Made by a program: the position numbers and the translations under genes
Notes under the pieces: generated by a model
The model's input: only the letters and a program-made list of their open reading frames with translations
What the model was told of the DNA's origin: nothing
Databases searched by the model: none
Part shown: positions 22,304-38,994 of the stretch, in pieces
Position numbering within the stretch: position 1 is the first letter of the stretch
Layout of the letters: each line of letters starts with the position of its first letter
Assembly (NCBI GenBank): GCA_003554965.1
Contig: PWHR01000020.1
Span: 70,202 to 134,201, forward strand
Reading direction: 5' to 3'
DNA from: Thermoplasmata archaeon
GTDB lineage: Archaea; Thermoplasmatota; Thermoplasmata; Halarchaeoplasmatales; Halarchaeoplasmataceae
DNA: 64,000 bases

Positions 22304-24156
22304 CTCTTTTCAGCTAATTCTTCAAAAAACTCTCTCTCCGACTTCAATTCTCCTTTAGGCTCCATAACCCGTTCGACTTCTTTTTCCTCTCCATTTATGT
22401 TGACTGAAGTGCCCTCTCTCTCAAACATAGTAAGAGATGGTATGACGAGATCAGCTTTTTCGGTTAATTCTGATCGTTTCGACGCCTGGACTATGGAAAA
22501 ATCAGCGTTCTCGATAAGTTTCTTCATATCCTCTTGATCATCTTCATCGCCTGCGAGGACATAAGCTACATCGGGCTCTTCGTAAACTCCTTCTGTTTCT
22601 AGACTCCTGATATACTGGTTGGAGGCCTGATTCAAGCTTATCAAGTAGCTACCTTCAAGCTTCGCTAATTCAAATATGTGTCTTATAGACCAACGATCGA
22701 TTATCTCACTACCCAAGATTATTATGTCATAGGTTGATTCTTCTAGATGTTTCACGACCTGCATCACATCTCTTGGATGCACCCTTAGACCACCTAGGAT
22801 CGAGGATACACGAGTAAGATCTTCTATAGATCCTTTACCCTCTCTGACGACTTGATTTATGAGCCTAGTTAACTGCGTCTTAGGAGATTCCACGCTTATA
22901 GAGATATCAGAATGTTCCCAGAACCTGTCTTCATAAGCATCTATGGTTATCAATCTGGTTCCGTTCATTGCTGCTCTTCTGATATACGAGGCTAGAACGG
23001 GATGTGTATCTCGTACAGAAGTATCGTAAAGAAGGATATGATCAGCTTTCATGACTTCTGTGATATCATCGATAAAGTGACCTTCGATCATATTTATCCT
23101 TCTTTTCACTTCTTTTTCGAATCTATGTCTTTTAGCTCCTACCACGTCAAATAAAGCTCCATGTGTTCTCATGGCTTCGGAAAACGAGTCGAGCACTTCA
23201 TTTGTGAGGTTTCCACTAGCCATAGCACTTATCTTGTCACCTTCATCGAGAACCTCTGCTGCCTTTTCGAGACCTTTTGCCAAACTCATCTCTTTCTCTG
23301 TCTCGTTCTCTTTATAGATCACATCATCGATTTTTTCAGTCCTGTCCACGAGAGGTTCAAATCTTCCCATCTCGCATAGCTGTCCTCCTGATTCCATTTC
23401 ACTTTCTGCCCCTTCGATCTCCACAAGATGTCCTGTACGGGTGTATATCTCAGTCTCGCATCCGACGCTGCATCTCAAGCAGGTAGATTCAGTGAGGTCA
23501 CATTCATCTTTGATGCCTTTGAACATACTGTGTTTGTTGAATATAGCTCCAGTGGGACATACTTGTAGGCACATACCACAAGAAACACAAGTAGATTCTT
23601 TCAAAGGTACATCGGCATCTGCAACTATCTCATTCTCGAGACCTCTACCACCAAATGCTAGAGTCTGATTTCCAACTACCTCTTCGCAGGCCCTAACACA
23701 CCTTCCACATCTGATACATCTGTTGTTGTCTATGACGATGTGCTCGTGGGAGGAATCTATAGGCCTATCTGGAAACAATCGAGGATGTTCAAAATAATCT
23801 ATCCCATTTTCCCACATCAGATCCTGTAATTCACAATCACCGTCAGATTCACAGAACATACAATAATGGTTTTCACTGCGGTATATAAGTTCAAGATTCA
23901 TCCTTCTGTATTTTTTGATCTCGTCCGTTTCAGTCTTTATCTCTAAATCTTCTTCCACTTTGAGTCCACAAGCTGGTTGTATTTGCTCTCCGTTCACTTC
24001 TACTATGCAAACCCGACAGGCCATAACGTTCTCCATTGCGTCGTGCTGGCAAAGTTTAGGTATATCTATACCGTGCTTTTTGCAAGCGGACATCACTGTT
24101 TCTCCCTTTTCAGCGGAGATCTTTTCTCCGTCTACAGTAAATTTTACGGTGCTCAT
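22300..24156 (-). CDS. hoxU: NuoG/HoxU-like FeS subunit (2Fe-2S + His-ligated 4Fe-4S + 2x4Fe-4S + degenerate molybdopterin-like domain)
   Basis: CRVCIVEV (2Fe-2S), HYCMFCESDGDC (His-4Fe4S), CIRCGRCVRAC, CVSCGMCLQVCP and CLRCSVGC were seen. 618 aa, a long form compared with ~240-aa cyanobacterial HoxU. Confidence 0.8.
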   Translation of the reverse strand: MSTVKFTVDGEKISAEKGETVMSACKKHGIDIPKLCQHDAMENVMACRVCIVEVNGEQIQPACGLKVEEDLEIKTETDEIKKYRRMNLELIYRSENHYCMFCESDGDCELQDLMWENGIDYFEHPRLFPDRPIDSSHEHIVIDNNRCIRCGRCVRACEEVVGNQTLAFGGRGLENEIVADADVPLKESTCVSCGMCLQVCPTGAIFNKHSMFKGIKDECDLTESTCLRCSVGCETEIYTRTGHLVEIEGAESEMESGGQLCEMGRFEPLVDRTEKIDDVIYKENETEKEMSLAKGLEKAAEVLDEGDKISAMASGNLTNEVLDSFSEAMRTHGALFDVVGAKRHRFEKEVKRRINMIEGHFIDDITEVMKADHILLYDTSVRDTHPVLASYIRRAAMNGTRLITIDAYEDRFWEHSDISISVESPKTQLTRLINQVVREGKGSIEDLTRVSSILGGLRVHPRDVMQVVKHLEESTYDIIILGSEIIDRWSIRHIFELAKLEGSYLISLNQASNQYIRSLETEGVYEEPDVAYVLAGDEDDQEDMKKLIENADFSIVQASKRSELTEKADLVIPSLTMFEREGTSVNINGEEKEVERVMEPKGELKSEREFFEELAEKR

Positions 24157-25952
24157 TCATTATCACCTTCCGATATAGCTTCGACAGGACAAACCTGAGC
24201 ACATTCACCACATGAGATACAGGTATCAGGATCGATGCTGTACGATTCATCTCCACTTGATATAGCGTCTACCGGACAGACTTCAGTACATTTTCCGCAC
24301 GTCACGCAAGCTTCCTCATCGATGTAGAAAGCCTCAACTAGTGCTTTACATGTGCCTGTTGGGCACTCTTTTTCGTTGACATGGGCCTCATATTCTTCCC
24401 TGAAAAATCTCAAAGTACTCAAAACTGGGTTTGGGCTTGCCTGGCCGAGTCCGCAGAAAGATGTATTCTGTACAGTTTCAGCTAGTTCTTCCAATGTCTC
24501 AAGATCCTCGGATTCTCCTTCACCTTTTGTTATCTTATCTAATATGTCCAACATCCTTTTGGTACCTAATCTACAGGGGGGACACTTACCACAGGATTCT
24601 TCCTGAGTGAAGTCTAAAAAGAACTTGGCGACATCGACCATGCATGTGTCTTCATCTAAAACTATGAATCCTCCCGAGCCCATTATAGTTCCAGCTTCCT
24701 CTAGTGAATCATAATCTATAGGTAGATCGATATGTTCTTCAGGTATAGTCCCACCAGCTGGTCCGCCTATCTGTACCGCCTTGAAATCCTTTCCACCGGC
24801 AACACCGCCAGCTATATCTATCATCTCTTCAATAGTGGTACCCATCTCAGCTTCAACAAGACCAGTGTTCCCAACATCTCCGGCTACTGCAAAAACCTTT
24901 GTTCCGGAACTTCCTTCAGTCCCGATATCATCGAACCACTCTGATCCTTTCTCTATAATAATAGGTATGTTCGCAAACGTTTCTACGTTGTTTATAACTG
25001 TAGGTTGATCCCAAAGACCAGATTGCGCGGGATATGGAGGCCTGTATTTTGGTCTTCCCTGTTTTCCCTCTATAGATGAAAGTAAAGCGGTCTCCTCACC
25101 ACAGACGAAAGCTCCTGCACCGACTCTCAACTCTACATTGAAATCAAATTGGGTGTTGAAAAGGTTCTCTCCTAGATAACCCTCGCTTTCGGCATCCCTA
25201 ATGGCTTTTTGTAGATTTCTGATAGCTAATGGATATTCAGCTCTAACATAGATATATCCCTTATTGGCTCCAACTGCGTAACCTGCGATCATCATCCCTT
25301 CGATGATACTATGTGGATCGCCTTCTAAAACACTCCTATCCATAAATGCTCCTGGATCTCCCTCATCTCCGTTACAAACAACATATTTTTCATCTTCGTC
25401 TTCACGGGCGGTAAATTCCCACTTGAGCCCAGTTGGGAATCCAGCACCACCTCTTCCCCGTAGGCCAGATTCTTTTATCTCTTCTATTATCTCCTCTCTT
25501 TCCATATCTGTTATAGCTTTCCTAGCTGCCATGTATCCATCATTTTCAAGATAGTCTTCAAGGCTGCTCGGATCTATATCTCCTGAATTCCTCATGACTA
25601 TCTTTTTTTGACCCTGTATGAAATCAAGTTTTTGAAACTCTTCGACTTTGTGACCATCATCCTCTATGAGTAAATTACGAACTACACGATCTTTCAACAA
25701 GTGTTCTTCAACAATTGTTTCAACATCGGATGGCTCTAGATTTCCATAAAAGGTGTCCTCAGGTCGAATGATTATCATAGGACCGAGATTGCAGGGTCCC
25801 ATACAGCCTGTCCTCTTTATCGCTCTAGTCACTGGATATTTATCCTCCAGTTCGTGTTTCCAGAGTTCGTCCATCAATTTATCTTCAATCTCCTCAGCCC
25901 CGGCTGATAAGCAACCTGTACCGGAACATATCAGGATTTCTCTTCTAGTCAT
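24153..25952 (-). CDS. hoxF: NuoF-like NAD(P)H-binding FMN/FeS subunit (HoxF / 51 kDa-like) with N-terminal Trx-like 2Fe-2S and C-terminal 2x[4Fe-4S]
   Basis: GAGFPTGLKWEF (FMN/NADH), ESCGKCPPCRLGT (N3 cluster), the N-terminal SGTGC...GCMGPC and the C-terminal CVTCGKCTEVCP/CISCGECAQVCP were seen. Confidence 0.9.
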   Translation of the reverse strand: MTRREILICSGTGCLSAGAEEIEDKLMDELWKHELEDKYPVTRAIKRTGCMGPCNLGPMIIIRPEDTFYGNLEPSDVETIVEEHLLKDRVVRNLLIEDDGHKVEEFQKLDFIQGQKKIVMRNSGDIDPSSLEDYLENDGYMAARKAITDMEREEIIEEIKESGLRGRGGAGFPTGLKWEFTAREDEDEKYVVCNGDEGDPGAFMDRSVLEGDPHSIIEGMMIAGYAVGANKGYIYVRAEYPLAIRNLQKAIRDAESEGYLGENLFNTQFDFNVELRVGAGAFVCGEETALLSSIEGKQGRPKYRPPYPAQSGLWDQPTVINNVETFANIPIIIEKGSEWFDDIGTEGSSGTKVFAVAGDVGNTGLVEAEMGTTIEEMIDIAGGVAGGKDFKAVQIGGPAGGTIPEEHIDLPIDYDSLEEAGTIMGSGGFIVLDEDTCMVDVAKFFLDFTQEESCGKCPPCRLGTKRMLDILDKITKGEGESEDLETLEELAETVQNTSFCGLGQASPNPVLSTLRFFREEYEAHVNEKECPTGTCKALVEAFYIDEEACVTCGKCTEVCPVDAISSGDESYSIDPDTCISCGECAQVCPVEAISEGDNE

Positions 25953-25979
25953 TTTATCTATCCTCTTTCTAAACTCTTT

Positions 25980-26438
25980 TTAATATCTATTTAAAATATC
26001 TTCTAGCTCTTCAGTCTGGACTTTACCATAAACATCATCACCGACCATCACTATCGGTGCTTTACTGCAGGCTCCAACACACCTTTTTGTGTTAAATGTG
26101 AATTTTCCGTCATCGGACGTGCCACCTTCTTCTACATTTAATCTGTCTTTCAGTTCTTCAGTTAGTTCGTCAGCTCCTTTCACATGACAAGCAGTTCCCG
26201 TACATACAGATATGGTGTAATCTCCCTTCGGTTCCATAGTAAAAAACGAGTAGAAAGTAACCACTGAATAAACTTGGCTGTATGGGATACCGAGTTCCTC
26301 GGCTATGAACTCCTGAACCTCTTTTGGAAGATAACCCAGTTTTTTCTGAACTTCGTGCAGTATGGGTATCAAACTTCCAGCTTTCTTTTCATATTCCTCT
26401 ATTATGGGCAACATATCCCGCAGATGGTATTTTTCCAT
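25980..26438 (-). CDS. hoxE: NuoE-like thioredoxin-fold [2Fe-2S] subunit (HoxE / 24 kDa-like)
   Basis: CTGTACHVKG...CVGACSKAP matches the NuoE Cys pattern, at 152 aa. Confidence 0.85.
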   Translation of the reverse strand: MEKYHLRDMLPIIEEYEKKAGSLIPILHEVQKKLGYLPKEVQEFIAEELGIPYSQVYSVVTFYSFFTMEPKGDYTISVCTGTACHVKGADELTEELKDRLNVEEGGTSDDGKFTFNTKRCVGACSKAPIVMVGDDVYGKVQTEELEDILNRY

Positions 26439-26766
26439 TATATCTATCCCCTTTTTATTTGCGAATGCGACCTATTCAAACTTTCCCTTTACTAGGCCTA
26501 AATCTTGGGTCAATTTTGCCTAGAAAGCGCCCATATTAAACACTTTCGCTCGCTTATTCATCCATATTTATTGTAAAAAAAGAAAATATAGATATGAGGT
26601 TGTTATTCTGGAAACTCTTATGACTTTTCGATCACAAGGTAGAAAAACACTCTATAATGAGCACAAATCTTTAATAGCAATCGATGTATTGGCGCATCCG
26701 TATTTAACGATATGAGTGAAATCATGGCAGTATTTGGAAAGGAATATAGAACCTGTTCAGGACTGT

Positions 26767-26785
26767 GGATATTGAAAGGATATCC
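26767..26785. promoter_or_regulatory. Candidate operator: GGATAT-N5-GGATATCC (direct repeat, second copy palindromic) ~45 bp upstream of the rightward hydrogenase operon
   Basis: Read directly from the sequence (ggatattgaaaggatatcc) within the 393-bp divergent intergenic region between the two hydrogenase operons. Confidence 0.25.
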
Positions 26786-26831
26786 GAATACCCAAGTTAC
26801 AGATATGTATACTAATAAGGAGGCATAAGCG

Positions 26832-28331
26832 ATGGATAAAAAACCGAAGGTGGCTTTTTTCGATTTCGCAGGATGTGAAGGAGACCAACTGCAAATAGCC
26901 AATTTAGAGGAAAAAATACTGGACCTGTTAGAACTGGTGGAGATAGTGAGTTTTAGGGAGGTCATGAAGGAGCATTCAGATGACTATGAAGTGGCTTTCA
27001 TCGAAGGTTCTATTCAGAGACCTAAAGACGAGGAGAGATTGAAAAAGATAAGATCGAACGCGGATATGTTGATAGCTCTTGGAGACTGTGCAAGCAACGG
27101 CTGTGTGAACAAACTCCAAAAAGATTGGTCTATAGATGAAGTTGAAGAAGAGGTCTATCCTGAAGCAGACGATGAGATAGAAGACAACGAACTCTTCTCT
27201 AATTTTTCAACAAAAGCCGTTGACGAAGTGGTTAATGTGGATTATTATCTGAGAGGTTGTCCTGTAAGAGGAGATCGTGTTCTCAACTTCGTTGAAAAAT
27301 TGGTGAAAAGACCAGTCGATACTAATAAAGATATAGATTTTGGAGTTATGCTGAGAGATAAAGAAGTTGATGAGCGGTCACTCGTCAACTACAATCCAAA
27401 TAAATGTATACTATGTCGACGGTGTGCTAATGTTTGTCAGGACGTCCTTGGAGTAGACGCATTAGGGCCGGTCGAAAGAGGTTGGGAGACGATCATATCA
27501 ACTCCTAAAGATATAGGATTTGACGCCAATGGATGTATTCAATGTGGACAATGTGTCGCGGTGTGTCCTGTAGATTCACTATATACAGATACGCCGGTAG
27601 AAGAGTTGTCTGAAAAGTTGAAAGAAGGAACCCAAGAGTTCGCCATAGCTCTGGACTCCATTGCGGTCGCCTCTTTTATCCAGGAGCATCCCATGCTGTC
27701 TGATATGGAACCAAAACAGGCAGAAAGATACTTTATCGCAAGTCTGAAAAAGATGGGATTCGGAAAAGTCGTTCAATACGAGCACTTTCTAGAGATGTCT
27801 AGAGAAGCAGATGAGGATAACGATGAGCCTGTATTAGCTAGTTGGTGTTTGCCTGCTAGAAATCATTTAGAAGCAGAGGAAATCGATTCTCTAAGTGTAA
27901 AAGACAAAAACGGACCTTGGAATAAGCTTTTAAAAGAAGTAAAAGGAGAGATCTGTTTGATGAGTCCATGCAGTGGTTTAAAAGCAGTTGAAGGGCTAGA
28001 TCATGTGATATCTGCTCCTGAGATGATAGATCTGTTCAACCACTTAGACATTCAAATTGGATTTGTTGAGCCAGCTTCGGGAGATTACGACGGAAAGCTT
28101 GCTTCTGATGATTTCAAGCATCCAGGAATTCCTGATGATAGAGAATATTTTAAGGTCACAGCTGATCTTGAAGATGAATTAGCTGAAGCGGACCTTGAAG
28201 ATGGGGGCGTAGACGTATTTCCCTGTCTGAATGGTTGTTTGAGTGGTGGAGGTAACCATCCAACAGCAGATGAATCCAAGATCAAGAAGAGGATAGAAAT
28301 AGCGATCGAATTGAGAGAGGTGAGATCATGA
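26832..28331 (+). CDS. Hybrid hydrogenase subunit: [NiFe] small-subunit (FrhG/MvhG-like) domain + 2x[4Fe-4S] ferredoxin domain + shortened [FeFe]-hydrogenase H-cluster-like domain
   Basis: The N-terminus FDFAGCEGDQ...GDCASNGC is a NuoB/small-subunit proximal-cluster pattern. CILCRRCANVC and CIQCGQCVAVCP are two 4Fe-4S motifs. The C-terminal 250 aa align by eye to the Clostridium-type HydA H-domain: IALDSIAVAS~VAMAPSVRAS, SLKKMGFGKV~ALRQLGFDKI, ASWCLPA~TSCCPGW (L1), MSPCSGLKAVE~MPCTSKKFEA (L2) and FPCLNGCLSGGGNHP~MACHGGCVNGGGQP (L3). SD aggagg is present. Confidence 0.75.
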   Translation: MDKKPKVAFFDFAGCEGDQLQIANLEEKILDLLELVEIVSFREVMKEHSDDYEVAFIEGSIQRPKDEERLKKIRSNADMLIALGDCASNGCVNKLQKDWSIDEVEEEVYPEADDEIEDNELFSNFSTKAVDEVVNVDYYLRGCPVRGDRVLNFVEKLVKRPVDTNKDIDFGVMLRDKEVDERSLVNYNPNKCILCRRCANVCQDVLGVDALGPVERGWETIISTPKDIGFDANGCIQCGQCVAVCPVDSLYTDTPVEELSEKLKEGTQEFAIALDSIAVASFIQEHPMLSDMEPKQAERYFIASLKKMGFGKVVQYEHFLEMSREADEDNDEPVLASWCLPARNHLEAEEIDSLSVKDKNGPWNKLLKEVKGEICLMSPCSGLKAVEGLDHVISAPEMIDLFNHLDIQIGFVEPASGDYDGKLASDDFKHPGIPDDREYFKVTADLEDELAEADLEDGGVDVFPCLNGCLSGGGNHPTADESKIKKRIEIAIELREVRS

Positions 28332-28819
28332 CTGAAACTCAAGACGAAAAAGAGGAGCTCTCTTGGAAAGAAAAAAAAGAACTTGAAAAGATCATAGATT
28401 CAGTCGAGGACCCCAAATACCAGAAAATCGAGCTGCTTCAAAAAACTCAGGAAAAATACAAGTGGCTGAAAGATGAGCATATGGGATATCTTGCCGAGTC
28501 TACTGGTGTCAGTTACACTGACCTTTACGGCATAGCTACTTTCTATACCCAATTTAAACTTCATCCGCCTGGACGTCATAAGATATCTGTTTGTATGGGT
28601 ACAGGATGTCACGTCAAAGGTGGTAGGGAAATACTTGAAAAATTAAAGGATATATTGGAGATAGACGTCAACGAAACAACAGAGGATAGAAGATTCTCAC
28701 TTGATCAGGTCAGGTGTTTGGGCTGTTGTGGTCTAGCCCCTGTTATTAACGTAGATGGTGAGACCTTTGGAAGAGTGAGTACAAAAGAAATAGAAGGTAT
28801 ATTAAAGGAGTTCAAGTAG
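28328..28819 (+). CDS. NuoE-like thioredoxin-fold [2Fe-2S] subunit
   Basis: CMGTGCHVKG...CLGCCGLAPV. It overlaps the upstream gene by 4 nt. Confidence 0.85.
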   Translation: MTETQDEKEELSWKEKKELEKIIDSVEDPKYQKIELLQKTQEKYKWLKDEHMGYLAESTGVSYTDLYGIATFYTQFKLHPPGRHKISVCMGTGCHVKGGREILEKLKDILEIDVNETTEDRRFSLDQVRCLGCCGLAPVINVDGETFGRVSTKEIEGILKEFK

Positions 28820-31800
28820 GTGAGAATGATGACTATAAAAACCTTAGAAGATTTAGATGAGATGGCGAATATAGGAATAGAAGATCTTGATCCAGATCAC
28901 CCACAGATAATCTTTGGATTCGCCACATGCGGTATAGCCGCTGGTGCTGAAGACGTGGTCGAGTTCACTAAAGAATATTTGGATGAAAAGGACATAAGAG
29001 CGGAACTCGGCGCAGTGGAAGAACCAGAGATCAAATCAGTAGGCTGTATCGGGATGTGTCATGCTGAACCATTGGTAGATGTAAAGATGCCCGACAAACC
29101 AAGGATAACATACTATGATGTAGATGAGACTAAGCTGAAGAGGATCATTGATGAACATGTTATAGGTGGTCGACCGGTCAAAGAATATGCTTTAGGTCAA
29201 TTGAGTGACGAACTATCGGAATGTGAGCACGGAAAGACGAAATTTACCTGGGAATTTGAGGAAATACCCTCCCTCAATGAGATACCTTTCCTATCAAAGC
29301 AGGTCAGAGTGGCTTTGAGAAACTGCGGTATCATCGATCCGGAATCGATAATGGAGTACACGGCTAGAGGGGGTTACAGGTCAGCCTTCAATGCATTGAA
29401 TAACATGAGTCCTCAAGAAGTGATAGAGGAAGTGAAAGAATCAGGACTGCGTGGTAGAGGAGGGGCCGGTTTTCCAACTGGTTTGAAATGGCAGTTCGCA
29501 AGAGACGCCGAAGGCGATCAAAAATATGTGATCTGCAACGCAGACGAAGGTGATCCTGGTGCTTATATGGATAGAGCAGTTTTAGAAGGAGATCCACACA
29601 GCCTCATAGAAGGCATGATCATAGGAGGTTATGCGATAGATGCCTCAGTCGGTTACATATACATCAGAGCCGAGTATCCTCTAGCCATTGAAAGGTTGAA
29701 AAAGGCCATAAAAGAGGCAGAGGAATACGGAATACTGGGCGAAGATATCTTAGGCAGTGATTTTTCCTTCGAACTAAAGATAATGGAAGGAGCAGGTGCT
29801 TTCGTATGTGGAGAAGAGACGGCATTGATGGGGTCTATAGAAGGTAACCGAGGTGAACCTAGACCTAGACCGCCTTTCCCGGCTAACTCCGGATTATTCG
29901 AAAAGCCGACCAACATCAATAATGTGGAAACCTGGGCGAACCTTCCGTTGATATTCGAAAAGGGCGCTGAGTGGTTCAACAGCATGGGGACCGAGAAAAG
30001 TAAAGGTACCAAAGTTTTCTCGCTTGTCGGCAATATCAAACGAGCTGGGCTGGTAGAGATCCCGATGGGTACGAAGATGAAAGATATAATATATGAGATA
30101 GGAGGAGGGATGCAGAACGAAAGAGATTTCAAAGCCGTCCAGACAGGTGGTCCTTCCGGTGGATGTATACCTCTTGAACATTTAGACGTGGAGGTAGATT
30201 ATGAGAACTTAGATGAACTTGGGTCAATCGTAGGTTCCGGTGGAATGGTGGCGATGGACGAAGATACGTGCATGGTCGATATCGCTCGATACTTCTTAGA
30301 ATTCTGCGTTGACGAGTCCTGCGGAAAGTGTACCCCCTGTAGAGTCGGTACTAGAAGGATGCTTGAAATCTTGGAAAGAATCGTTTTGGGCGAAGCAAAG
30401 ATGAAAGATTTAGAAACCCTAGAACATCTAGCTAAACAAGTCAGGGATGGATCACTTTGTGCCCTAGGAGGTACATCACCCAATCCCGTGCTTACCACAT
30501 TGAAGTACTTTAGAGATGAATACGAGCAGCATATAGAGCATAACAAATGTCCTGCTTCCTCATGTGCAGCTTTATTCCTTTCACCGTGTGAAGATACTTG
30601 TCCTGCCGGAACCGATGTGCCAGGTCAGATGCAACTTATCATCGAGGAGCGTTTCGGGGAAGCTTACGAATTTCAGAGGGAAGACAATCCATTCCCCGGT
30701 GTTTGTGGAAGAGTATGCGACCATCCTTGTGAGGACAGATGTCAGAGGAACCAATTGGATAGAGCAGTTTCTGTGATGTCTCAGCACAGGTTCTGCGCAG
30801 ATAAAGTGTATGAAGGAGAGATCGATTACAGACCTGAAACCTCAACTCTTGAAGATACAGGTAAACATGTTGGTATAGTCGGCGGAGGAGTCACAGGATT
30901 GACGACCGCTTACTTCTTAAAAAGATTGGGTCACGATGTTACGATATACGAAGCGAAGGACGAACTTGGAGGTATGCTGAGATGGGGCATACCAAAATAC
31001 AGGCTGCCTAGAGACGTGTTGGACTGGGAGATACAACAGATTTTGGATCTCAATGTGGATGTAGAGATGAACACATCAGTGGGCAAGGATATCCCGTTTG
31101 ATGATGTGCTTGATGATCATGACGCGGTGTTCCTTGGAGTAGGAGCTCAGAAAGATCGCGCATTGAATATGGAAAACGAAGATAAGCCAGGCATATTGAA
31201 AGGAATGGATATCCTTGAAAAGATGAACAGAGGTGAAGAAGTAGAGTTGGGAGACCGCATCCTGATAGTCGGTGGGGGTAACGTAGCCGTCGATATGGCT
31301 AGGACCGCTAAGAGGATGGGCTGCGAAGAGATAATAATAGCATACAGGAGAGAAGAGGTAGATATGCCGGCTTATCCCGAAGAAGTAGAAGAGGCAAAAA
31401 AAGAAGGTATAGAGTTCAATTTCCTTCTTTCTCCTGAAGAGATAATAGTTGAAGATGGAAAAGCTACCGGCATGGTTTTCACGAAAACTAAGATGGGTGA
31501 ATACACCAAATGGGGTCGTAGGAAACCAGTGCCTGTGGATTACGAGAAAGTCATCTTCAAAGCAGATAATATAATTACGGCGATAGGTCAGGAAATAGAC
31601 ATGAGTTTCGCTGAGGACTTGGCTGATAAGATCACAGATGAAAGGGGAAGAAGACTTAAAGTAAATCCCTATACGATGGAAACAGATCATCCTGATGTAT
31701 TTGCAGGAGGAGACGCCGTTTTAGGACCAGCCACCGTTATAGAGGCCGTAGGCCATGGTAAAAAAGCCGCTAAGGAAATAGACGCCCGATTGATGGGGGA

Positions 31801-32014
31801 AGACAGGTTGGAAGAACTTCAGAGCATAAATACTTATGAATATTCCATGGAACCACCAGATAACGAGCACTACATACCTAGAGCAGAATATCAATCCATC
31901 CCCGTAGAAGAAAGGAGTGGTAACTTCGAGGAAGTCATAGTATGTATGGACAGGGAGTGCGCGGTAAAAGAAGCAAAGCGTTGTCTTAGATGTGATATAT
32001 CAGAGGAGGAATGA
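28820..32014 (+). CDS. Fusion protein: NuoF-like NAD(H)/FMN/FeS module + GltD/NfnB-like FAD-dependent NADPH oxidoreductase module
   Basis: GAGFPTGLKWQF and ESCGKCTPCRVGT (NuoF core), an N-terminal Trx-like ATCG...GCIGMCH, then CEDTCPAGTD...CGRVCDHPCEDRC (GltD-type FeS), VGIVGGGVTGLTTAY (FAD) and IVGGGNVAVDMA (NADPH) folds were seen. 1064 aa. Confidence 0.85.
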   Translation: MRMMTIKTLEDLDEMANIGIEDLDPDHPQIIFGFATCGIAAGAEDVVEFTKEYLDEKDIRAELGAVEEPEIKSVGCIGMCHAEPLVDVKMPDKPRITYYDVDETKLKRIIDEHVIGGRPVKEYALGQLSDELSECEHGKTKFTWEFEEIPSLNEIPFLSKQVRVALRNCGIIDPESIMEYTARGGYRSAFNALNNMSPQEVIEEVKESGLRGRGGAGFPTGLKWQFARDAEGDQKYVICNADEGDPGAYMDRAVLEGDPHSLIEGMIIGGYAIDASVGYIYIRAEYPLAIERLKKAIKEAEEYGILGEDILGSDFSFELKIMEGAGAFVCGEETALMGSIEGNRGEPRPRPPFPANSGLFEKPTNINNVETWANLPLIFEKGAEWFNSMGTEKSKGTKVFSLVGNIKRAGLVEIPMGTKMKDIIYEIGGGMQNERDFKAVQTGGPSGGCIPLEHLDVEVDYENLDELGSIVGSGGMVAMDEDTCMVDIARYFLEFCVDESCGKCTPCRVGTRRMLEILERIVLGEAKMKDLETLEHLAKQVRDGSLCALGGTSPNPVLTTLKYFRDEYEQHIEHNKCPASSCAALFLSPCEDTCPAGTDVPGQMQLIIEERFGEAYEFQREDNPFPGVCGRVCDHPCEDRCQRNQLDRAVSVMSQHRFCADKVYEGEIDYRPETSTLEDTGKHVGIVGGGVTGLTTAYFLKRLGHDVTIYEAKDELGGMLRWGIPKYRLPRDVLDWEIQQILDLNVDVEMNTSVGKDIPFDDVLDDHDAVFLGVGAQKDRALNMENEDKPGILKGMDILEKMNRGEEVELGDRILIVGGGNVAVDMARTAKRMGCEEIIIAYRREEVDMPAYPEEVEEAKKEGIEFNFLLSPEEIIVEDGKATGMVFTKTKMGEYTKWGRRKPVPVDYEKVIFKADNIITAIGQEIDMSFAEDLADKITDERGRRLKVNPYTMETDHPDVFAGGDAVLGPATVIEAVGHGKKAAKEIDARLMGEDRLEELQSINTYEYSMEPPDNEHYIPRAEYQSIPVEERSGNFEEVIVCMDRECAVKEAKRCLRCDISEEE

Positions 32015-32020
32015 TAACCA

Positions 32021-32707
32021 ATGAATATAATAATCGACGGAAAAGAATACGGATTTGAGCCTGGGCAAAAAGTTTACGATGTGGCCGAGGAGAACGGTAT
32101 TGATATACCCACTCTATGCTTCAATGAGTTGAATCCAGACGAAAGACCCGCAGGATGCAGGATGTGTGTGGTAGAAATAATCGATGATGGAAACAACGAA
32201 CCAAATCTAGAGTCCAGTTGTACTTTACCTGCCTCTGATGGTTTAGAGATTTCAACGAAGAATAAAGTAGTATACGATGAAAGAAGAGAAGTTCTTGAGC
32301 TGTTACTATCTGAGCATGAACAGGATTGTCGTAATTGTGGGATAAGCGGCGACTGTCATTTTGCCGATCTTTCCTTAGAATACGATATAGACGGTGTTTC
32401 AGTATGTTCAGAATGTCCCAATCGTAAAGATGGATGTTTTCTGTCCCGAGATGTATTATGTTTAGGGGCGATAACTCATGCAGGTTGTGATGCTTTCTGT
32501 ACTCGCAACGGAGACCCTTGTGAGGGTTGTTTCAGTGTTCTTAGCAACGAAGACGTACTAGTATTTGGACTCGAAGCCTATGATGAGAATGGCTTCAGCA
32601 GAAAAGAAGTGTTGGAATCTGCTAAAGTCTTCTCTTATGAGGATGTTGAGGTACTCAAAAGACTGATGGAAGAAAATGACTTATTGAAAGAGGAGGTGTC
32701 TGAATGA
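32021..32707 (+). CDS. HoxU-like ferredoxin subunit (2Fe-2S + 4Fe-4S clusters)
   Basis: The 2Fe-2S-ferredoxin N-terminus (TLCF...GCRMCVVEI), HEQDCRNCGISGDC and CSECP...CDAFC...CEGC Cys clusters were seen. 228 aa. Confidence 0.7.
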   Translation: MNIIIDGKEYGFEPGQKVYDVAEENGIDIPTLCFNELNPDERPAGCRMCVVEIIDDGNNEPNLESSCTLPASDGLEISTKNKVVYDERREVLELLLSEHEQDCRNCGISGDCHFADLSLEYDIDGVSVCSECPNRKDGCFLSRDVLCLGAITHAGCDAFCTRNGDPCEGCFSVLSNEDVLVFGLEAYDENGFSRKEVLESAKVFSYEDVEVLKRLMEENDLLKEEVSE

Positions 32708-34014
32708 AAGATGTAGACGTCGAAGTAGAACACGTGACCAGAGTAGAAGGTCACGGTAATATAATAGTTGATGCGAAAAAAGGTGAACTAGAGGAAGTCC
32801 TTTGGGAGGTTTCAGAAGCACCAAGGTATTTTGAAGCATTCGTTAAAGAAAAACCATACGATCAATTGGCTCAGATAACATCTAGGATTTGCGGTATCTG
32901 TTCCATCGGCCATGCGTTGACCTCTCTCAAGGCTACTGAAGACGCTATGGGTATAGAGATCTCAAAGCAAGACAAGATGTTGAGAAAGTTAGCTCTTCAT
33001 GGAGAAAACATGCAGAGTCATGTTTTACACATAGGTTATCTAGCTCTTCCCGACTTAGTGGGAAAGGATTCGATAGTTCCTATGACCTCATCTCATCCCG
33101 AGGAACTTAAAACAGTCATCGGCATACACAGTCTTGCTAACGAGATGTCGCGGATCATGTGCGGAAGGACAACTCATCCAAGGCGGTTGATACCTGGTGG
33201 TTTTTCAAAACTGCCTTCTCCTCTGGAACTGGAAGATCTGATGCATAAGCTTGAGAGTTCAGTCACTGATCTGAAAGAGATAGCTTCCTTTGTAAAAGGA
33301 CTCTCTTCAGAACTTCCTGATTTCGAAAGAGAAACAGAGTTCATCTCGCTGACCCATGACGATGAATATCCTTTCTATGAAGGCAAAATAATATCTTCAG
33401 ATGGTGGGAAAACACCCGTTGAAGATTACCTCTCCGTAACAAATGAGTACGTAGTACCACAATCCACTGCCAAGTATACTAAAAATAATCGGGAATCCTA
33501 TATGGTAGGTGCCTTAGCAAGGCTGAACAATAACTATGACAAATTGAGTCCACTCGCAAAAGAGGTTGCAGAAGACTTTGGCCTTTCTCCCGTCTGCCAC
33601 AATCCTTACATGAACACTATAGCCCAGCTAGTCGAAGTCGTTCATAACGTAGAAGATTCAATTCGCATTATTAATGAATTACTCGATAGAGGCATAGATG
33701 AACAGGGATCAACTCACAAACCCGAAATAGAACCGAAGACTGGAAGAGGTATAGGTGCTGTAGAGGTACCAAGAGGCATACTGTTCCACGATTACACTTA
33801 CGATGAAGATGGCAGGTGTACTGATGCGAACTGTATAATACCTACAAATCAGAACCATGGTAATATACAGCACGATATGGAAGACTTGGTCCCGGAGATA
33901 ATAGGAGAAAGAACAGAGGATGAAATAGAATTGACGTTGGAAATGCTAGTACGTGCTTACGACCCGTGTATCTCCTGTTCAACGCACTACGTAGATGTTG
34001 ATTTCGTAGAATAG
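32704..34014 (+). CDS. [NiFe]-hydrogenase large subunit (short group-3-type)
   Basis: RICGICSIGH at the N-terminus and DPCISCSTHYVD at the C-terminus were seen. 436 aa. Confidence 0.9.
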   Translation: MKDVDVEVEHVTRVEGHGNIIVDAKKGELEEVLWEVSEAPRYFEAFVKEKPYDQLAQITSRICGICSIGHALTSLKATEDAMGIEISKQDKMLRKLALHGENMQSHVLHIGYLALPDLVGKDSIVPMTSSHPEELKTVIGIHSLANEMSRIMCGRTTHPRRLIPGGFSKLPSPLELEDLMHKLESSVTDLKEIASFVKGLSSELPDFERETEFISLTHDDEYPFYEGKIISSDGGKTPVEDYLSVTNEYVVPQSTAKYTKNNRESYMVGALARLNNNYDKLSPLAKEVAEDFGLSPVCHNPYMNTIAQLVEVVHNVEDSIRIINELLDRGIDEQGSTHKPEIEPKTGRGIGAVEVPRGILFHDYTYDEDGRCTDANCIIPTNQNHGNIQHDMEDLVPEIIGERTEDEIELTLEMLVRAYDPCISCSTHYVDVDFVE

Positions 34015-34052
34015 AAAACATACATTAATGATACAAAAACCATTTTTATTTT

Positions 34053-34652
34053 TCATTCTTCATCTTCTATTTTGGTAAGGATCTTTTCGAATCTTTCCTC
34101 TAACTCTTTATCTTTTCTCTTCTCAAGGAGATACATCAGGACTTCGAATCTGAGAAGTTGGGGAAAGCTTACCTCGCCGATCTTTTCTTCTTCATCAGAG
34201 ATAGGATCCATAACCCTTTCTTTGAGATCTATAAAGAACTTGGATAGTTCATCGATCAATTCCTCTTTCTCTTCTTCCTTTACTTTGTAGTTCATGATCT
34301 CCAGAAAGTCAACCATCTTTTCTGCATTCTTTTTTTCCCAATCTATCGTTATGTCCGTACGGACTCCGCTTTCCATTGAACTTGGATTGAGTAAAAAAAC
34401 CTTGGCCGTCCTCGAGTAAACTTTTTTCGGTATATGGTGGTCTTTTTGTTCTCCCACCATTTCCAAGTATCCTGCCTTTTCCAACTTTTTCACATGTCTA
34501 TAGATAGTGGAGTGGTCCTTGTCTAGAGTTTCAGACATCTGTGTAAGTGTCATATCATTTACTTTCAGTAGCGAGAGTATATCTCTCCTGGTATCCTCTA
34601 TAGCCAACTTGACATGTTCTGGATCACTCACTACTTTTACTTCCTTTTTCAT
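34053..34652 (-). CDS. ArsR-family HTH transcription regulator with extended acidic C-terminal domain
   Basis: An N-terminal wHTH (RRDILSLLKVNDMTLTQMSETLDKDHSTIYRHVKKLEKAGYL) is present. Confidence 0.6.
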   Translation of the reverse strand: MKKEVKVVSDPEHVKLAIEDTRRDILSLLKVNDMTLTQMSETLDKDHSTIYRHVKKLEKAGYLEMVGEQKDHHIPKKVYSRTAKVFLLNPSSMESGVRTDITIDWEKKNAEKMVDFLEIMNYKVKEEEKEELIDELSKFFIDLKERVMDPISDEEEKIGEVSFPQLLRFEVLMYLLEKRKDKELEERFEKILTKIEDEE

Positions 34653-34816: not shown

Positions 34817-35155
34817 GTGAAAAACGACGAGAATTGCTGCTCCGATGACAAGAATTGTTTGTGTCCCGTAGAAGGTATCATCGATGTGATCTCTAAAAAG
34901 TGGGCGATATGTATAATAAGTCATCTAGGAATCAAAAAGGAAGGGTACAGGTTCAATGAACTTCAAAGGTCTTTAAAAGGCATAAGTCCAAAATCTCTTT
35001 CAGACCGTCTTAAAGAGCTGAAGGAAGAAGGGCTCATCGATAGAGATGTTGAAGATTCCGTACCTCCAAAAGTTACTTACACACTCACCAAAGACGGCAG
35101 ATCCTTACACGAAAGAATGAAACCTCTAGTAAGGTGGGTAAACGAAAGAGAGTAG
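34817..35155 (+). CDS. HxlR-family HTH regulator with N-terminal Cys-rich segment
   Basis: GTG start. KWAICIISHL...YRFNEL is the HxlR core. The N-terminal CCSDDKNCLCP is a possible redox/metal-sensing Cys cluster. Confidence 0.65.
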   Translation: MKNDENCCSDDKNCLCPVEGIIDVISKKWAICIISHLGIKKEGYRFNELQRSLKGISPKSLSDRLKELKEEGLIDRDVEDSVPPKVTYTLTKDGRSLHERMKPLVRWVNERE

Positions 35156-35349: not shown

Positions 35350-36348
35350 ATGGTAGAAACACATCATCCGAGAAGAGGTTCAATGGGATATTCACCCCGA
35401 AAACGCGCTAAAAGCATCGTGCCCAATATCAGGTCTTGGCCGGAATGGGATGGGGAGCCAAAATTACAGGCCTTCCCTGGTTACAAGGCGGGTATGAGCC
35501 ACGCTTTCGTAGTAGATTACAGAGCTACAAGCACAACGTCAGGACAGGAAGTGAGGGTACCTATCACGATAGTTGAAGTCGCACCTATCAAAGTAGTAGG
35601 CTTACGATTCTACGAAGAAACACATGAAGGATTGAAAACGATGGGAGAAGTATGGACCAGTAAGGTCGACGAAACCCTTAGAAAGAGACTTCCCGTACCT
35701 GATAATTATAATACCGAGAGTATGTGGGATGGGATAGATAGAGAGTTAGTAGACGAAGTCAGAGCGATAATTCATACTCAACCGGATCTAGTTTCTGGCA
35801 TCCCGAAAAAGGTCCCTGAGATCATGGAAGTTAGGATCGGTGGAGGAACTATTCAGGAAAGGATCGATGCCGGAGAAAAAATGCTTGGTGAAGATATTGA
35901 ATACGAGGATTTCTGCGAAGCGGGCAGGATGGTAGATGTTTCAGCTATAACCAAAGGTAAGGGATTTCAAGGACATGTTAAAAGGTGGGGTGTGAAATTA
36001 CTTCAGCATAAAAATAGTAAATCTGTTAGGAATGTTGGAAACACTGGCCCCTTTAGACCAGGTTATACCAGACCCACGGTTCCTCAAGCTGGACAGCAAG
36101 GGTATCATCAAAGGACTGAATTGAATAAACGTGTGCTTAAAATCGGTGAAGACGGTGAGGAAGTCACACCCGATGGAGGCTTTATAAATTACGGAGATAT
36201 AAACAACTCATACGTGGTACTCCACGGTTCTATACCTGGACCAACTAAGAGGTTGACTGTGATGAGAGACGCCGTTAGAGACGAAAAATACGATGTGCAT
36301 GATCCGAACTTAACCTACATATCGACTGAATCTAACCAGGGGGTCTAA
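35350..36348 (+). CDS. rpl3: 50S ribosomal protein L3 (uL3)
   Basis: Archaeal uL3 N-terminus HHPRRGSMGYSPRKRA; its position heads the L3-L4-L23-L2 cluster. Confidence 0.95.
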   Translation: MVETHHPRRGSMGYSPRKRAKSIVPNIRSWPEWDGEPKLQAFPGYKAGMSHAFVVDYRATSTTSGQEVRVPITIVEVAPIKVVGLRFYEETHEGLKTMGEVWTSKVDETLRKRLPVPDNYNTESMWDGIDRELVDEVRAIIHTQPDLVSGIPKKVPEIMEVRIGGGTIQERIDAGEKMLGEDIEYEDFCEAGRMVDVSAITKGKGFQGHVKRWGVKLLQHKNSKSVRNVGNTGPFRPGYTRPTVPQAGQQGYHQRTELNKRVLKIGEDGEEVTPDGGFINYGDINNSYVVLHGSIPGPTKRLTVMRDAVRDEKYDVHDPNLTYISTESNQGV

Positions 36349-36351
36349 TAG

Positions 36352-37119
36352 ATGAAGGCAAAAGTATACAACCTAGACGGTAAATCGAAAACTGAGATCG
36401 ATCTTCCTGCTCCTTTCTCTGAAGAGATAAGGCCAGATATAATCAAAAGAGCGGTAGAGTCATCAGAAGCAAATAAAAAGCAGCCCTATGGTCCTTCAAA
36501 AGAGGCTGGCATGAGACACGCTACGGAGATGCAGGGAAAAGGCCAAGGTATGGCGAGAGTACAGAGATTGACACAGTACGGAGGAAGTAGAGCCGCAGAA
36601 TCACCCCAAACGAGAGGGGGTAGAAGAGCTCATCCTCCGAAAGCGGAAAAAGACATGGGGAAGAAGATAAACAAAAAGGAACGCGCAAAGGCAAGAAGAT
36701 CTGCCTTGGCAGCCACAGCAAAACTTGAACTTATCAAAGAAAGAGGTCATGAGATCGAAGACGACTCTATTGATACGCCGATAGTAGTGGAAAAGAATAT
36801 CGATGAGATAAATAAGACTAAAGAGGCAATAGAATTTTTGAAAGAGATGGGTGTATACTCAGATATAGAGAGAGCCAAGGATGGGAAGAACATAAGAGCA
36901 GGGAAGGGTAAAAGAAGAAATAGAAAGTATAGACGGCCTAAAAGTCTTTTAGTTATTTTGCCGGAAGATTCTAAAGGTTTGAGAGCCTTCGATAATCTGC
37001 CAGGAGTTACTGCGAAAAACCCTCATAATCTGACTATAGAGGACCTATCCCCAGGTGGCCATTTAGGCAGATTGACTATCTTCAGCGTAAGTGCTTTGGA
37101 TAAATTGGAGGATTGGTAA
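36352..37119 (+). CDS. rpl4: 50S ribosomal protein L4 (uL4)
   Basis: Family similarity and conserved operon position. Confidence 0.9.
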   Translation: MKAKVYNLDGKSKTEIDLPAPFSEEIRPDIIKRAVESSEANKKQPYGPSKEAGMRHATEMQGKGQGMARVQRLTQYGGSRAAESPQTRGGRRAHPPKAEKDMGKKINKKERAKARRSALAATAKLELIKERGHEIEDDSIDTPIVVEKNIDEINKTKEAIEFLKEMGVYSDIERAKDGKNIRAGKGKRRNRKYRRPKSLLVILPEDSKGLRAFDNLPGVTAKNPHNLTIEDLSPGGHLGRLTIFSVSALDKLEDW

Positions 37120-37122
37120 TAA

Positions 37123-37392
37123 ATGACTAAATACGACTCAGCTCATAAAATAGTTTACCATCCGTACGTTACGGAGAAAACCATGATGGAAATGGAAGAA
37201 GAGAACAAGCTCGAATTCATATGCGCTATAAAAGCCAACAAACATCAGATTGCAGAGGCTGTAGAAGAACTATTCGATGTCGATGTAGAAAAGGTAAATA
37301 CAAGGATAGATGAAAAAGGGAAAAGAGCGGTGGTCAAATTCACGGATGAACATTCCGCAGAAGAGATAGGAATGAGGATAGGGGTGTTCTAA
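37123..37392 (+). CDS. rpl23: 50S ribosomal protein L23 (uL23)
   Basis: 89 aa; family similarity and position. Confidence 0.9.
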   Translation: MTKYDSAHKIVYHPYVTEKTMMEMEEENKLEFICAIKANKHQIAEAVEELFDVDVEKVNTRIDEKGKRAVVKFTDEHSAEEIGMRIGVF

Positions 37393-37393
37393 G

Positions 37394-38122
37394 ATGGGTA
37401 AAAGGATAATACCTCAAAGAAGAGGAAAAGGCTCACCTACCTATAGATCGCCAAGCCATAGACATCTGGCTAGACCAGGTTATCCTAAGAGTCAGGAAAC
37501 TAAGGGAGAAGTTATAGATATACACCACGCTCCAGGCAGAACAGCCCCTTTAGCCGAAGTCGAGTTCGACAACGGAGAAACCACCTTCTTGATCGCTAAT
37601 CATGGGCTTTGGGTAGGAGAAGAGATCGAAGTCGGGCCCGAAGTGAAGGTTGAGAAGGGCAACGTTTTACCTCTTCGAAGGATACCTGTAGGTATGTTCA
37701 TTTATAATATTGAACTAGAACCGCTAGACGGTGGAAAATTGGTAAAAACTGCAGGAAACTACGCAACGATCATAGCCCAGGAGAGAGAAAAAACCGTAGT
37801 AGAACTACCATCCGACAAGATCAAAAAAATAGATAATCGCTGTAGAGCAACAGTGGGAATAATAGCGGGAGGAGGACATAAAGATCAACCTTTAGTAAAA
37901 GCGGGTAAAAACGTCAAAAGTTTGAGGAGCAGGGCCAAGAGCGCAAGAAAAGTCAGAGGTGTTGCGATGGACTCTGTCGATCATCCCCATGGTGGAGGCG
38001 ATCACCAGCATGTAGGTGTACCTTCGACAGTTTCAGCCAATGCTCCGCCCGGAAGAAAAGTTGGTCGTCTTTCCTCCAAAAAGAAGAAAAAAGGTAAGAA
38101 AAAGAAGAAAAAAGAAAGGTGA
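37394..38122 (+). CDS. rpl2: 50S ribosomal protein L2 (uL2) with unusual C-terminal poly-Lys tail
   Basis: [12 protein letters not shown]...HPHGGG...GRKVG, then [16 protein letters not shown] encoded by an A-rich tract. Confidence 0.9.
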
Positions 38123-38129
38123 TAGATTT

Positions 38130-38534
38130 ATGGCAGATAATGTATCAAGAGATCAAAGAAAGTTCACATATCGTGGTTACGCCTTAAACGAGCTTAAGAA
38201 GATGTCCTTGAATGAACTCAAAGAAGTTCTACCTGCAAGGGCTAGGAGATCGCTGGACAGAGGTTTGAATAAAGGTGAGAAAAAACTGTTAGAAAAAATA
38301 GAGAACAAAGACAAAGACGTTTACAGGACTCATAGAAGAGAGATGATCATCCTTCCTCAGTTCGTCGGAAAAAGGATAGCCATACACAACGGTGAAGAGT
38401 TCAAAACTATCAAGATAGAACCTGAAATGATAGGGCATTATCTAGGAGAATTTGCTATGACAAGGAAAAACGTTGAGCATTCTGGGCCAGGTATAGGAGC
38501 GACACGTTCTTCGAAATACATACCCCTTAAATGA
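38130..38534 (+). CDS. rps19: 30S ribosomal protein S19 (uS19)
   Basis: An internal ATG of the track ORF 38016..38534 gives [17 protein letters not shown]...[14 protein letters not shown]...SGPG. The upstream part of that ORF overlaps rpl2 in another frame and is rejected. Confidence 0.85.
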
Positions 38535-38992: not shown

Positions 38993-38994
38993 CA

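Follow-up and report, generated by a model that had tools for sequence, protein, structure and literature searches.

A predicted hybrid [NiFe]/[FeFe] hydrogenase operon with two candidate nicotinamide-binding modules from a probable salt-in halophile of the Thermoplasmata

Hybrid [FeFe]/[NiFe] hydrogenases are a recent discovery, and the presence of two H2 sites in one complex is still unexplained. The proposed group F [FeFe] / group 3f [NiFe] hybrid hydrogenase consists of HydA-HyhS, HydB, HydC, HydD, and HyhL (Greening et al., Cell 2024; PMC11216029). Its gene set was reported from 21 archaeal genomes, and HydB in these genomes has a glutamate-synthase-type domain (PMC11216029). The published representative is Thermoplasmatota UBA147 sp002496385, for which an AlphaFold2 model shows a complex with four arms; in addition, two HydA-HyhS fusions from Thermoplasmata SG8-5 were assayed after artificial maturation, and one of them produced H2 (PMC11216029). 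A literature search for later characterization of the hybrid complex, after 2024, found none. Here we describe a five-gene cluster at positions 26832-34014 (+ strand) of a 64,000-nucleotide (nt) stretch of contig PWHR01000020.1 from a Thermoplasmata archaeon. This whole stretch is called the window, and all positions follow its numbering.

With high confidence, the cluster is an operon for a cytosolic hybrid hydrogenase that belongs with group F [FeFe] / group 3f [NiFe]; its source is probably a salt-in halophile, most likely related to the Thermoplasmata. The enzyme type was already published in 2024, and the cluster in the window is an additional halophile member rather than a new kind. A sequence-only reading had described a five-gene operon encoding a hybrid subunit, a NuoE homolog, a NuoF::GltD fusion, a HoxU-like protein, and a [NiFe] large subunit, and this description was borne out by open reading frames, gene junctions, and domain searches. 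Its statement that the layout matches no known scheme did not hold, because the same five-subunit set is published as group F/3f (PMC11216029) and the UBA147 cluster is both syntenic and homologous. The same reading had named, as grounds for its own refutation, placement in a well-characterized subgroup with exactly this subunit set; such a subgroup has been described, but biochemically it is not well characterized. Taken jointly, the identity of the cluster and the NAD(H)/NADP(H) mechanism proposed below are probably the best explanation of the locus, and we hold this combined view with moderate confidence. The genes lie in the order A-C-B-D-L (HyhS-HydA fusion, HydC, HydB, HydD, and HyhL), and their products and main parts are as follows.

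26832-28331, + strand: hybrid subunit HyhS-HydA (called HydA-HyhS in PMC11216029), 499 amino acids (aa), from Pfam, PDB phmmer, and AlphaFold2/Foldseek
27606-28331, + strand: predicted short-form [FeFe] H-domain of the hybrid subunit, residues 259-499, ~241 aa, from a clade profile, PDB phmmer, and predicted fold
28328-28819, + strand: HydC, NuoE/HoxE-like thioredoxin-fold [2Fe-2S] subunit, 163 aa, with Cys 89, 94, 130, and 134
28820-32014, + strand: HydB, 1064 aa
28820-30577, + strand: N-terminal part of HydB, BfuB/NuoF-like, residues 1-586, from PDB matches and motifs
30578-32014, + strand: C-terminal part of HydB, GltD-like, residues 587-1064, with 2x[4Fe-4S], a flavin adenine dinucleotide (FAD) site, and an NADPH site
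32021-32707, + strand: HydD conduit subunit, 228 aa, Pfam Fer2_4 and NADH-G_4Fe-4S_3
32704-34014, + strand: HyhL, group-3 [NiFe] large subunit, 436 aa, Pfam NiFeSe_Hases

The five genes are tightly packed. Overlaps of 4 nt (ATGA) occur at 28328 and 32704, the HydC stop codon (TAG, 28817-28819) directly adjoins the GTG start of HydB at 28820, and a spacer of 6 nt separates HydB from HydD at 32021. The 4-nt overlaps had been recognized from the sequence, but the accompanying statement that only one start is led by a Shine-Dalgarno motif was wrong; a GGAGG-like motif lies ahead of all five starts, including a strong one (AAGGAGG) 7 nt 5' of the ATG at 26832. The HydB start is ambiguous, with GTG 28820 (1064 aa) competing with later ATG codons at 28826 and 28829, and an independent gene caller chose ATG 28826 (1062 aa). 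Relatives were sought by a scan of GTDB species genomes and by a separate protein search for the hybrid subunit. The synteny search that had been suggested as a check found the same five-gene order in about 38 other loci, either whole or cut by a contig end. Because of the tight packing and the conservation of gene order in these loci, a single predicted operon is the only reasonable reading of the sequence.

The cluster has the features of the published family. An N-terminal group-3 [NiFe] small-subunit domain is fused to a C-terminal [FeFe] H-domain, and the genes for HydC, HydB with a glutamate-synthase-type domain, four-cluster HydD, and group-3 HyhL are contiguous with it; the same five subunits, the same fusion, the four-cluster HydD, and the group-3 large subunit are shared with UBA147 and the published family. 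UBA147 (locus L034) has the same gene order, although its contig ends inside HydB. Compared to UBA147, the hybrid subunit is 41% identical (residues 4-439), and HydB is 63% identical over the portion present in L034. The published long forms differ in length (571-594 aa, compared to 499 aa in the window), and the H-domain in the window is without ~70-90 of their residues. The halophile subclade to which the window belongs also differs from the published long forms in having Asp in the proximal CxxC motif and, where StnC has K170, His. In a neighbor-joining tree (BLOSUM62 distances, no support values, group A as sole outgroup), all fused proteins group together, separate from group A HydA, and their clade splits into a long-form group with UBA147 and a short-form group with the window. 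By its sequence, the hybrid subunit in the window thus appears to belong to a short-H-domain sister clade of the UBA147 representative, and the short forms possibly are a distinct subgroup of hybrid hydrogenases.

The first gene of the cluster encodes the fused subunit. Residues 1-160 are the N-domain of a [NiFe] small subunit, with proximal-cluster ligands C15, D18, C86, and C143; Pfam places Oxidored_q6 at residues 15-156 and adds Fer4 motifs, and residues 184-258 hold 2x[4Fe-4S] in two CxxCxxCxxxC motifs. By PDB phmmer, residues 4-159 match MvhG and the delta subunit of the sulfhydrogenase SHI, and residues 166-322 and 455-489 match [FeFe] HydA. The AlphaFold2 model has a mean pLDDT (predicted local distance difference test score) of 90, and values are 92-98 throughout the H-domain. 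Best Foldseek matches of the model are TmHydA, TkHydA, and CpI (prob 1.0), and the small-subunit N-domain matches SHI delta (root-mean-square deviation 1.8). This N-domain shares 64% identity with an ordinary 3b-type small subunit (locus L077). One of its proximal-cluster ligands is unusual. Asp18 (26883-26885) replaces the second Cys of the CxxC motif, and Asp occurs at this position in the window and in 10 of 54 other short-form homologs, whereas Cys is found in all 24 long forms having a residue there. Asp is known as a cluster ligand from the Frh small subunit, and Asp18 may tune the proximal cluster.

The H-domain has the cysteines expected to bind an H-cluster (C339, C380, C465, and C469), as well as K384 and GGG472-474. 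Among 81 sequences, the four cysteines (L1, L2, and the L3 CxxxC) are invariant or at least 90% conserved, and K384 and the GGG motif are invariant or nearly so. In the PDB, all matches to a profile of the short-form H-domain are [FeFe] hydrogenases (best E 6e-6). Pfam Fe_hyd_lg_C was not detected in residues 259-499 of the hybrid subunit, so the assignment rests on PDB phmmer, the clade profile, and the predicted fold, all of which identify these residues as a putative [FeFe] H-domain. Signatures of the short forms are S276 (Pro in long forms), HPG430-432, and N475 (Gln in long forms).

HydD has 15 Cys and one His forming four cluster motifs. Residues 1-120 are a HydA/NuoG/HoxU-type N-terminus with [2Fe-2S] and His-ligated [4Fe-4S] motifs, and residues 121-210 are the C-terminal iron-sulfur (FeS) domain of a group-3b small subunit, with eight Cys for two clusters. 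The name HoxU-like, given to this protein from sequence, therefore fits its N-terminal half only; the C-terminal half is the domain that holds the medial and distal FeS clusters in a group-3 [NiFe] small subunit. In model searches, residues 2-131 correspond to the first 125 positions of HydA A6 (NCBIfam FeFe_hydrog_A6, 2-125), NuoG, and HoxU models, and residues 121-210 to positions 160-250 of the model for sulfhydrogenase delta (NCBIfam sulfhyd_HydD). In BLASTP, HydD 122-206 aligns with residues 161-244 of the ordinary small subunit of L077 (37% identity, E 2e-16). Positions 135-267 of FeFe_hydrog_A6 match the hybrid subunit instead. Both the [NiFe] small subunit and an M3-type HydA are thus split over two genes (the small-subunit parts being at 26832-27311 and 32381-32650 in the window; compare L077 9998-10759), and the hybrid subunit is a small-subunit N-domain plus a HydA C-part, whereas HydD is a HydA N-part plus a small-subunit C-domain. 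Because these complementary segments of HydA and small subunit, defined by model matches and BLASTP, lie across both genes, the hybrid subunit and HydD look as if they had arisen when hyhS and an M3-type hydA exchanged parts reciprocally.

HyhL carries the motifs RICGICSIGH and DPCISCSTH, with Ni-Fe ligands C63, C66, C422, and C425. An 8-residue C-terminal tail follows His428 and is presumably removed by a maturation protease. PDB matches are SHI alpha (E 4e-62), MvhA (1e-55), A. mobile HydL (1e-48), and Hox (5xf9_D, 6e-35). Identity is 54-82% to large subunits of other five-gene clusters and 55-62% to unfused group-3b-like small/large subunit pairs. By PDB and NCBIfam comparisons HyhL is closest to group-3b large subunits, with scores for the NCBIfam models ShyA and HydA far under their cut-offs.

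HydC and the first half of HydB resemble the flavin core of bifurcating enzymes. HydC matches Pfam 2Fe-2S_thioredx (E 7e-47) and NCBIfam NuoE/HoxE. In HydB, the Pfam domains are Complex1_51K, SLBB, and NADH_4Fe-4S, followed by Fer4_20 and Pyr_redox_2. The N-terminal part comprises a thioredoxin-like domain, a flavin mononucleotide (FMN)/NADH site, the B1 [4Fe-4S] cluster, and a B2 His/Cys hinge (H571, C577, and C582). The alignment to T. sibiricus NfnB (9n5u_B) covers residues 30-586 and that to A. mobile NiFe-HydB (7t2r_B) residues 39-586, each with E ~1e-206 and ~62% identity, and the motifs GDPGAYMDR, FVCGEETAL, GGPSGG, ESCGKCTPCR (B1), and H..KCPASSC (B2) are kept. Bifurcation-specific residues of Bfu enzymes are the AFM motif, a Phe/Glu loop, GGPSG, and a His with two Cys past the four-helix bundle (PMC12018979). 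HydB has these residues, with AYM (Phe to Tyr) instead of AFM, and they are kept across 29 loci.

The Bfu-specific residues bear on a simple alternative, in which the complex is a non-bifurcating bidirectional hydrogenase that equilibrates H2 with NAD(H) and/or NADP(H), as in groups 3b and 3d, and the two flavins are independent exits. The affinity of HyhL to group 3b sulfhydrogenase large subunits is consistent with this, and H2 oxidation by either NAD+ or NADP+ is exergonic at standard conditions. However, the B2 His, the GGPSG loop, and AYM for AFM correspond to residues reported as Bfu-specific and absent in non-bifurcating NuoF homologs, and we regard independent exits as quite improbable.

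Membership in the Bfu family proper (Schut et al. 2022; Xiao et al. 2025) was also considered. The NuoF FMN, SLBB, and NuoF 4Fe-4S domains and a NuoE-like partner are present in HydB and HydC, but the C-terminal ferredoxin-type domain (two CX2CX2CX3CP motifs, B3/B4, IPR017896) is missing from HydB; the BfuB alignment stops at residue 586. Past this residue comes a GltD-type Fer4_20 with different Cys spacing, followed by FAD/NADPH domains. The hybrid enzyme is therefore predicted to have a Bfu-like core without being a canonical Bfu family member.

The GltD-like module has its best PDB matches in NfnA (9n5u_A, E 5e-112), 9bov_A, and StnC (8oh5_C, E 4e-100), with further matches to NfnL (5jca_L), NfnB (4ylf_B), GltD (2vdc_G), and DPD. 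Its identity to the NADPH/FAD modules in NfnA and StnC is ~50%. The second Rossmann motif, YRR, and the equivalent of StnC R239 are kept. The role of the YRR motif is binding of NADPH, and the NADPH-type motifs GGGNVAVD and YRR are kept in 29 loci. The NuoF::GltD fusion (1049-1066 aa), with all cofactor motifs, is conserved in 29 complete copies. In StnC, Lys170 is an unusual ligand of the [4Fe-4S] cluster adjoining FAD. The equivalent residue in HydB is His656 (30785-30787); it is His in the clade of the window and Lys in other hybrid clusters.

The GltD-like module begins 6 residues after the B2 hinge, which is the attachment point of ferredoxin-like B3/B4 in Bfu enzymes. In Bfu enzymes, the ferredoxin-like B3/B4 domain takes low-potential electrons from the HydC cluster and docks ferredoxin (PMC12018979). 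Given that the module occupies the hinge where B3/B4 receives HydC electrons, its clusters and FAD likely lie on that branch, with NADP(H) replacing ferredoxin. Ferredoxin may nevertheless be the second partner. In that case H2 would reduce NAD+ at FMN and ferredoxin at or near the glutamate-synthase-type domain, and the FAD/Rossmann module would not be an NADP(H) site in vivo. Ferredoxin coupling was proposed from the AlphaFold2 model of the UBA147 complex (PMC11216029), HydB has the Bfu flavobicluster signatures, and in NfnSL enzymes the path to ferredoxin runs through both [4Fe-4S] clusters of the GltD-type subunit. Opposed to this are the loss from HydB of the B3/B4 domain that forms the Bfu ferredoxin site, the conservation of the NADPH-type motifs, and the presence of a ferredoxin-type NiFe-HydABCSL operon next door (see below). 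In addition, the fused module is nearest to the non-bifurcating, NADPH-binding StnC/NfnA type (PMC10482914). On this evidence ferredoxin coupling seems unlikely.

At the level of motifs, the Ni-Fe site is complete, every H-cluster ligand is present at a second site, and about 10 FeS-cluster motifs connect the two; the complex also has an FMN/NADH site and an FAD/NADPH module. The earlier proposal of two distinct nicotinamide sites gains good support from homology, both from the NuoF part (~62% to NfnB/HydB, with NADH/FMN motifs) and from the GltD module (~50% to NfnA/StnC, with YRR kept). In the mechanism that we propose, H2 would be split or made at the [NiFe] site and possibly at the H-domain site too. 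Electrons would pass along the FeS clusters of the hybrid subunit and of HydD, reach the B1 cluster, and continue to the HydB FMN, where NAD(H) would react. From the [2Fe-2S] cluster of HydC, a second branch would lead via both GltD-type [4Fe-4S] clusters to FAD as the reaction site for NADP(H). The complex may thus couple H2 with NAD(H) and NADP(H), bifurcating or confurcating, with NADP(H) in the position held by ferredoxin in HydABC/Bfu; we offer this coupling tentatively, with somewhat less than even confidence. A bifurcating or confurcating role was also proposed in the published model (PMC11216029). If NADP(H) is the second partner, the complex would be a hydrogenase that bifurcates electrons from H2 to NAD+ and NADP+, or confurcates those of NADH and NADPH, and no enzyme has yet been shown to couple them in this way. 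A more specific version adds to the replacement of ferredoxin by NADP(H) on the second Bfu-type branch that the short-form H-domain is either the smallest functional H-cluster domain (~240 aa) or a relic without a diiron site; this combination is doubtful.

Several points weigh against coupling to both nicotinamides by a complex with two H2 sites. The authors who described the family favored ferredoxin over NADP+ as the acceptor at the glutamate-synthase-type domain (PMC11216029). With respect to NAD+ and NADP+, H2 is not clearly a "mid-potential" donor, so bifurcation may not be thermodynamically required. About 70-90 residues are missing between FxHPG and the L3 motif compared to long forms and canonical HydA. 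W338 stands where canonical [FeFe] hydrogenases have the proton-relay Cys, a position that we take to be C299 of CpI; Trp is found there in both short and long forms. Published activity comes from artificially matured fusions of unstated length. Finally, hyp and hydEFG maturation genes were searched for, and none were found within the 64-kb window.

Some of these points lead to another explanation of the H-domain, which may be vestigial. It would then bind only a [4Fe-4S] cluster (as a relay or sensor) without making H2, and the complex would be a single-site [NiFe] hydrogenase; this would fit either coupling model. "Ultraminimal" group E [FeFe] enzymes average 286 aa (PMC11216029), and the H-domain in the window (~241 aa) is shorter than this average. 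The deletion takes in the counterpart of the GGVMEA helix region, and beside the Trp at the proton-relay position there is Ser and Phe for the L2 and L3 Met and Ser276 for the Pro of long forms. The H-domain escapes detection by the Pfam model and is the least conserved part of the subunit (38-43% identity, compared to 61% for the small-subunit domain). The H-cluster position in NiFe-HydABCSL is taken by a plain [4Fe-4S] cluster (PMC8880783). Against a vestigial domain, the near-invariance of the four H-cluster Cys, K384, and GGG holds in 80 homologs, and the H-domain model matches true HydA folds at high pLDDT. Trp at the W338 position is universal in the long forms, to whose clade UBA147 belongs, and a single group F fusion made H2 after artificial maturation. 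In any case, hydEFG is missing from most archaea that have active [FeFe] enzymes (PMC11216029). A vestigial H-domain is quite possible, but we would not expect it.

The protein search returned 232 relatives of the hybrid subunit in two length classes, one of ~500 aa, mostly without a precomputed PF02906 match, and one of ~570-590 aa, with PF02906. A-C-B-D-L loci occur in metagenome-assembled genomes (MAGs) of Thermoplasmata, Hadarchaeota, and Bathyarchaeota and in Methanomassiliicoccales UBA147, and also on contigs binned as Balneolales, Cyclonatronaceae, Gemmatimonadales, and others. The closest relatives are from soda-lake sediment MAGs (hybrid subunit 73-77% identical), in which ten genes are arranged in two operons as in the window, and the best match among GTDB species representatives is 77% identical. 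Although the family was published as archaeal, complete five-gene clusters are present in bacteria-labeled MAGs (L008-L018, L015, L023, and L002). These labels include at least nine Balneolales/Cyclonatronaceae bins from several studies, as well as Gemmatimonadales, Gammaproteobacteria, and Nealsonbacteria. Genes flanking the Balneolales-labeled clusters are hypF, hypD, hypE, and housekeeping genes only. The bacteria-labeled clusters are either mis-binned contigs or transfers to soda-lake bacteria.

A second hydrogenase operon lies upstream of the hybrid operon in divergent orientation, and the flanks of the hybrid operon carry further features:

20313-26438, - strand: second hydrogenase operon, NiFe-HydABCSL / Bfu type
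26439-26831, no strand: divergent intergenic region of 393 nt, AT-rich (35% GC), between the hybrid operon (+) and the NiFe-HydABCSL-type operon (-)
34043-34053, + strand: TTTTTATTTTT tract, double T5, 29 nt past the HyhL stop codon

Products of the second operon are a NuoE-like protein (152 aa), BfuB (599 aa), a NuoG-like BfuA (618 aa), a small subunit (182 aa), and a large subunit (479 aa). The 599-aa NuoF homolog has the canonical N-terminal [2Fe-2S] and C-terminal 2x[4Fe-4S] domains. The best PDB match of the large subunit is 7t2r_D (E 9e-169), and that of the NuoG-like protein is 7t2r_A (E 4e-81). These matches identify the operon as a predicted canonical NAD+/ferredoxin-type bifurcating [NiFe] hydrogenase. 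With a canonical NiFe-HydABCSL next door, it can be argued that the hybrid enzyme has a distinct, non-redundant coupling. The ten-gene, two-operon arrangement is common to the window, L002, L003, and L027.

The intergenic region is presumed to be the promoter region of both divergent operons; a simple pattern search of 26439-26831 for an archaeal TATA-box gave no match. At the other end, the TTTTTATTTTT tract is likely an archaeal oligo-T terminator, and from 34053 a regulator gene follows in convergent orientation. Both operons are flanked by winged-helix regulators (HTH_45/MarR-like, ArsR-type, and HxlR-type) at 19462-20247 (-), 34053-34652 (-), and 34817-35155 (+), and they are possible redox- or H2-responsive regulators. 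A radical SAM gene at 18464-19459 (+) was considered as a HydE/HydG maturase and rejected, because its product is of the AmmeMemoRadiSam type (TIGR04337, E 5e-99). Elsewhere in the window there is a formate-tetrahydrofolate ligase gene at 10258-11937, and open reading frames at 35350-48645 were read by eye as an archaeal ribosomal-protein operon starting at 35350. Proteins encoded in the window are strongly acidic (pI 4.2-5, D+E ~19-22%), and GC content is 42%. Given these acidic proteins and the closest syntenic contigs, which belong to soda-lake Thermoplasmata MAGs, the source organism is probably a salt-in halophile related to the Thermoplasmata.

The locus adds to the hybrid family a halophile member with a much reduced H-domain. 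It also adds a sequence argument that the second flavin module is a Stn/Nfn-like NADPH module at the ferredoxin position, and the adjoining NiFe-HydABCSL operon is a natural comparison for the hybrid enzyme. This sharpens two pairs of hypotheses: coupling to NADP(H) or to ferredoxin, and an H-domain that is catalytic or vestigial.

Known bifurcating enzymes share parts of the hybrid complex in other arrangements. A. mobile NiFe-HydABCSL (PDB 7T2R; PMC8880783) has the same HydBC flavin core, group-3 NiFe large and small modules, and a HydA-derived FeS conduit. However, its HydS is free (179 aa), whereas the small subunit in the window is split and fused; its HydA is NuoG-like, with a [4Fe-4S] cluster in place of the H-cluster, whereas the window has an H-domain with H-cluster ligands; and its HydB ends in a ferredoxin-binding 2x[4Fe-4S] domain, whereas HydB in the window ends in a GltD-type FAD/NADPH module. 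The true homolog of the A. mobile enzyme in the window is the operon at 20313-26438. Stn (Sporomusa ovata StnABC, 8OH5) and Nfn-Bfu (T. sibiricus NfnABC, 9N5U; 9BOV) share a NuoE+NuoF-like bifurcating core and a GltD-like FAD/NADPH module with a C-terminal RCLxC strand. In these enzymes the GltD-like module belongs to the A subunit (StnC/NfnA), where it precedes a NuoG-like domain and feeds the core via B1, whereas in the window it is at the C-terminus of the B subunit. They also contain no hydrogenase.

In group 3b sulfhydrogenases (P. furiosus SHI, 9NEZ; HyhBGSL, for example L077), the large subunit is the nearest solved one (E 4e-62), and the small-subunit N-domain and C-terminal FeS domain are recognizable in the window. 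The operon in the window differs in being without the HyhB/HyhG partners (sulfite-reductase / FNR-type) and in its split small subunit, and it has NuoE, NuoF, GltD, and the H-domain instead. Membership in group 3b HyhBGSL was ruled out on the absence of HyhB/HyhG and of an intact HyhS. HoxEFUYH (group 3d) combines a NuoE-, NuoF-, and HoxU-like diaphorase with a group-3 [NiFe] dimer, as does the hybrid complex, but HoxF is without GltD, HoxY is free and minimal, HoxU is without a small-subunit domain, and there is no H-domain. HyhL also matches Hox weakly (E 6e-35, compared to 4e-62 for SHI). Membership in HoxEFUYH was ruled out as well, because the small subunit in the window is fused and split, GltD is carried on HydB, and the large subunit is far nearer to that of SHI.

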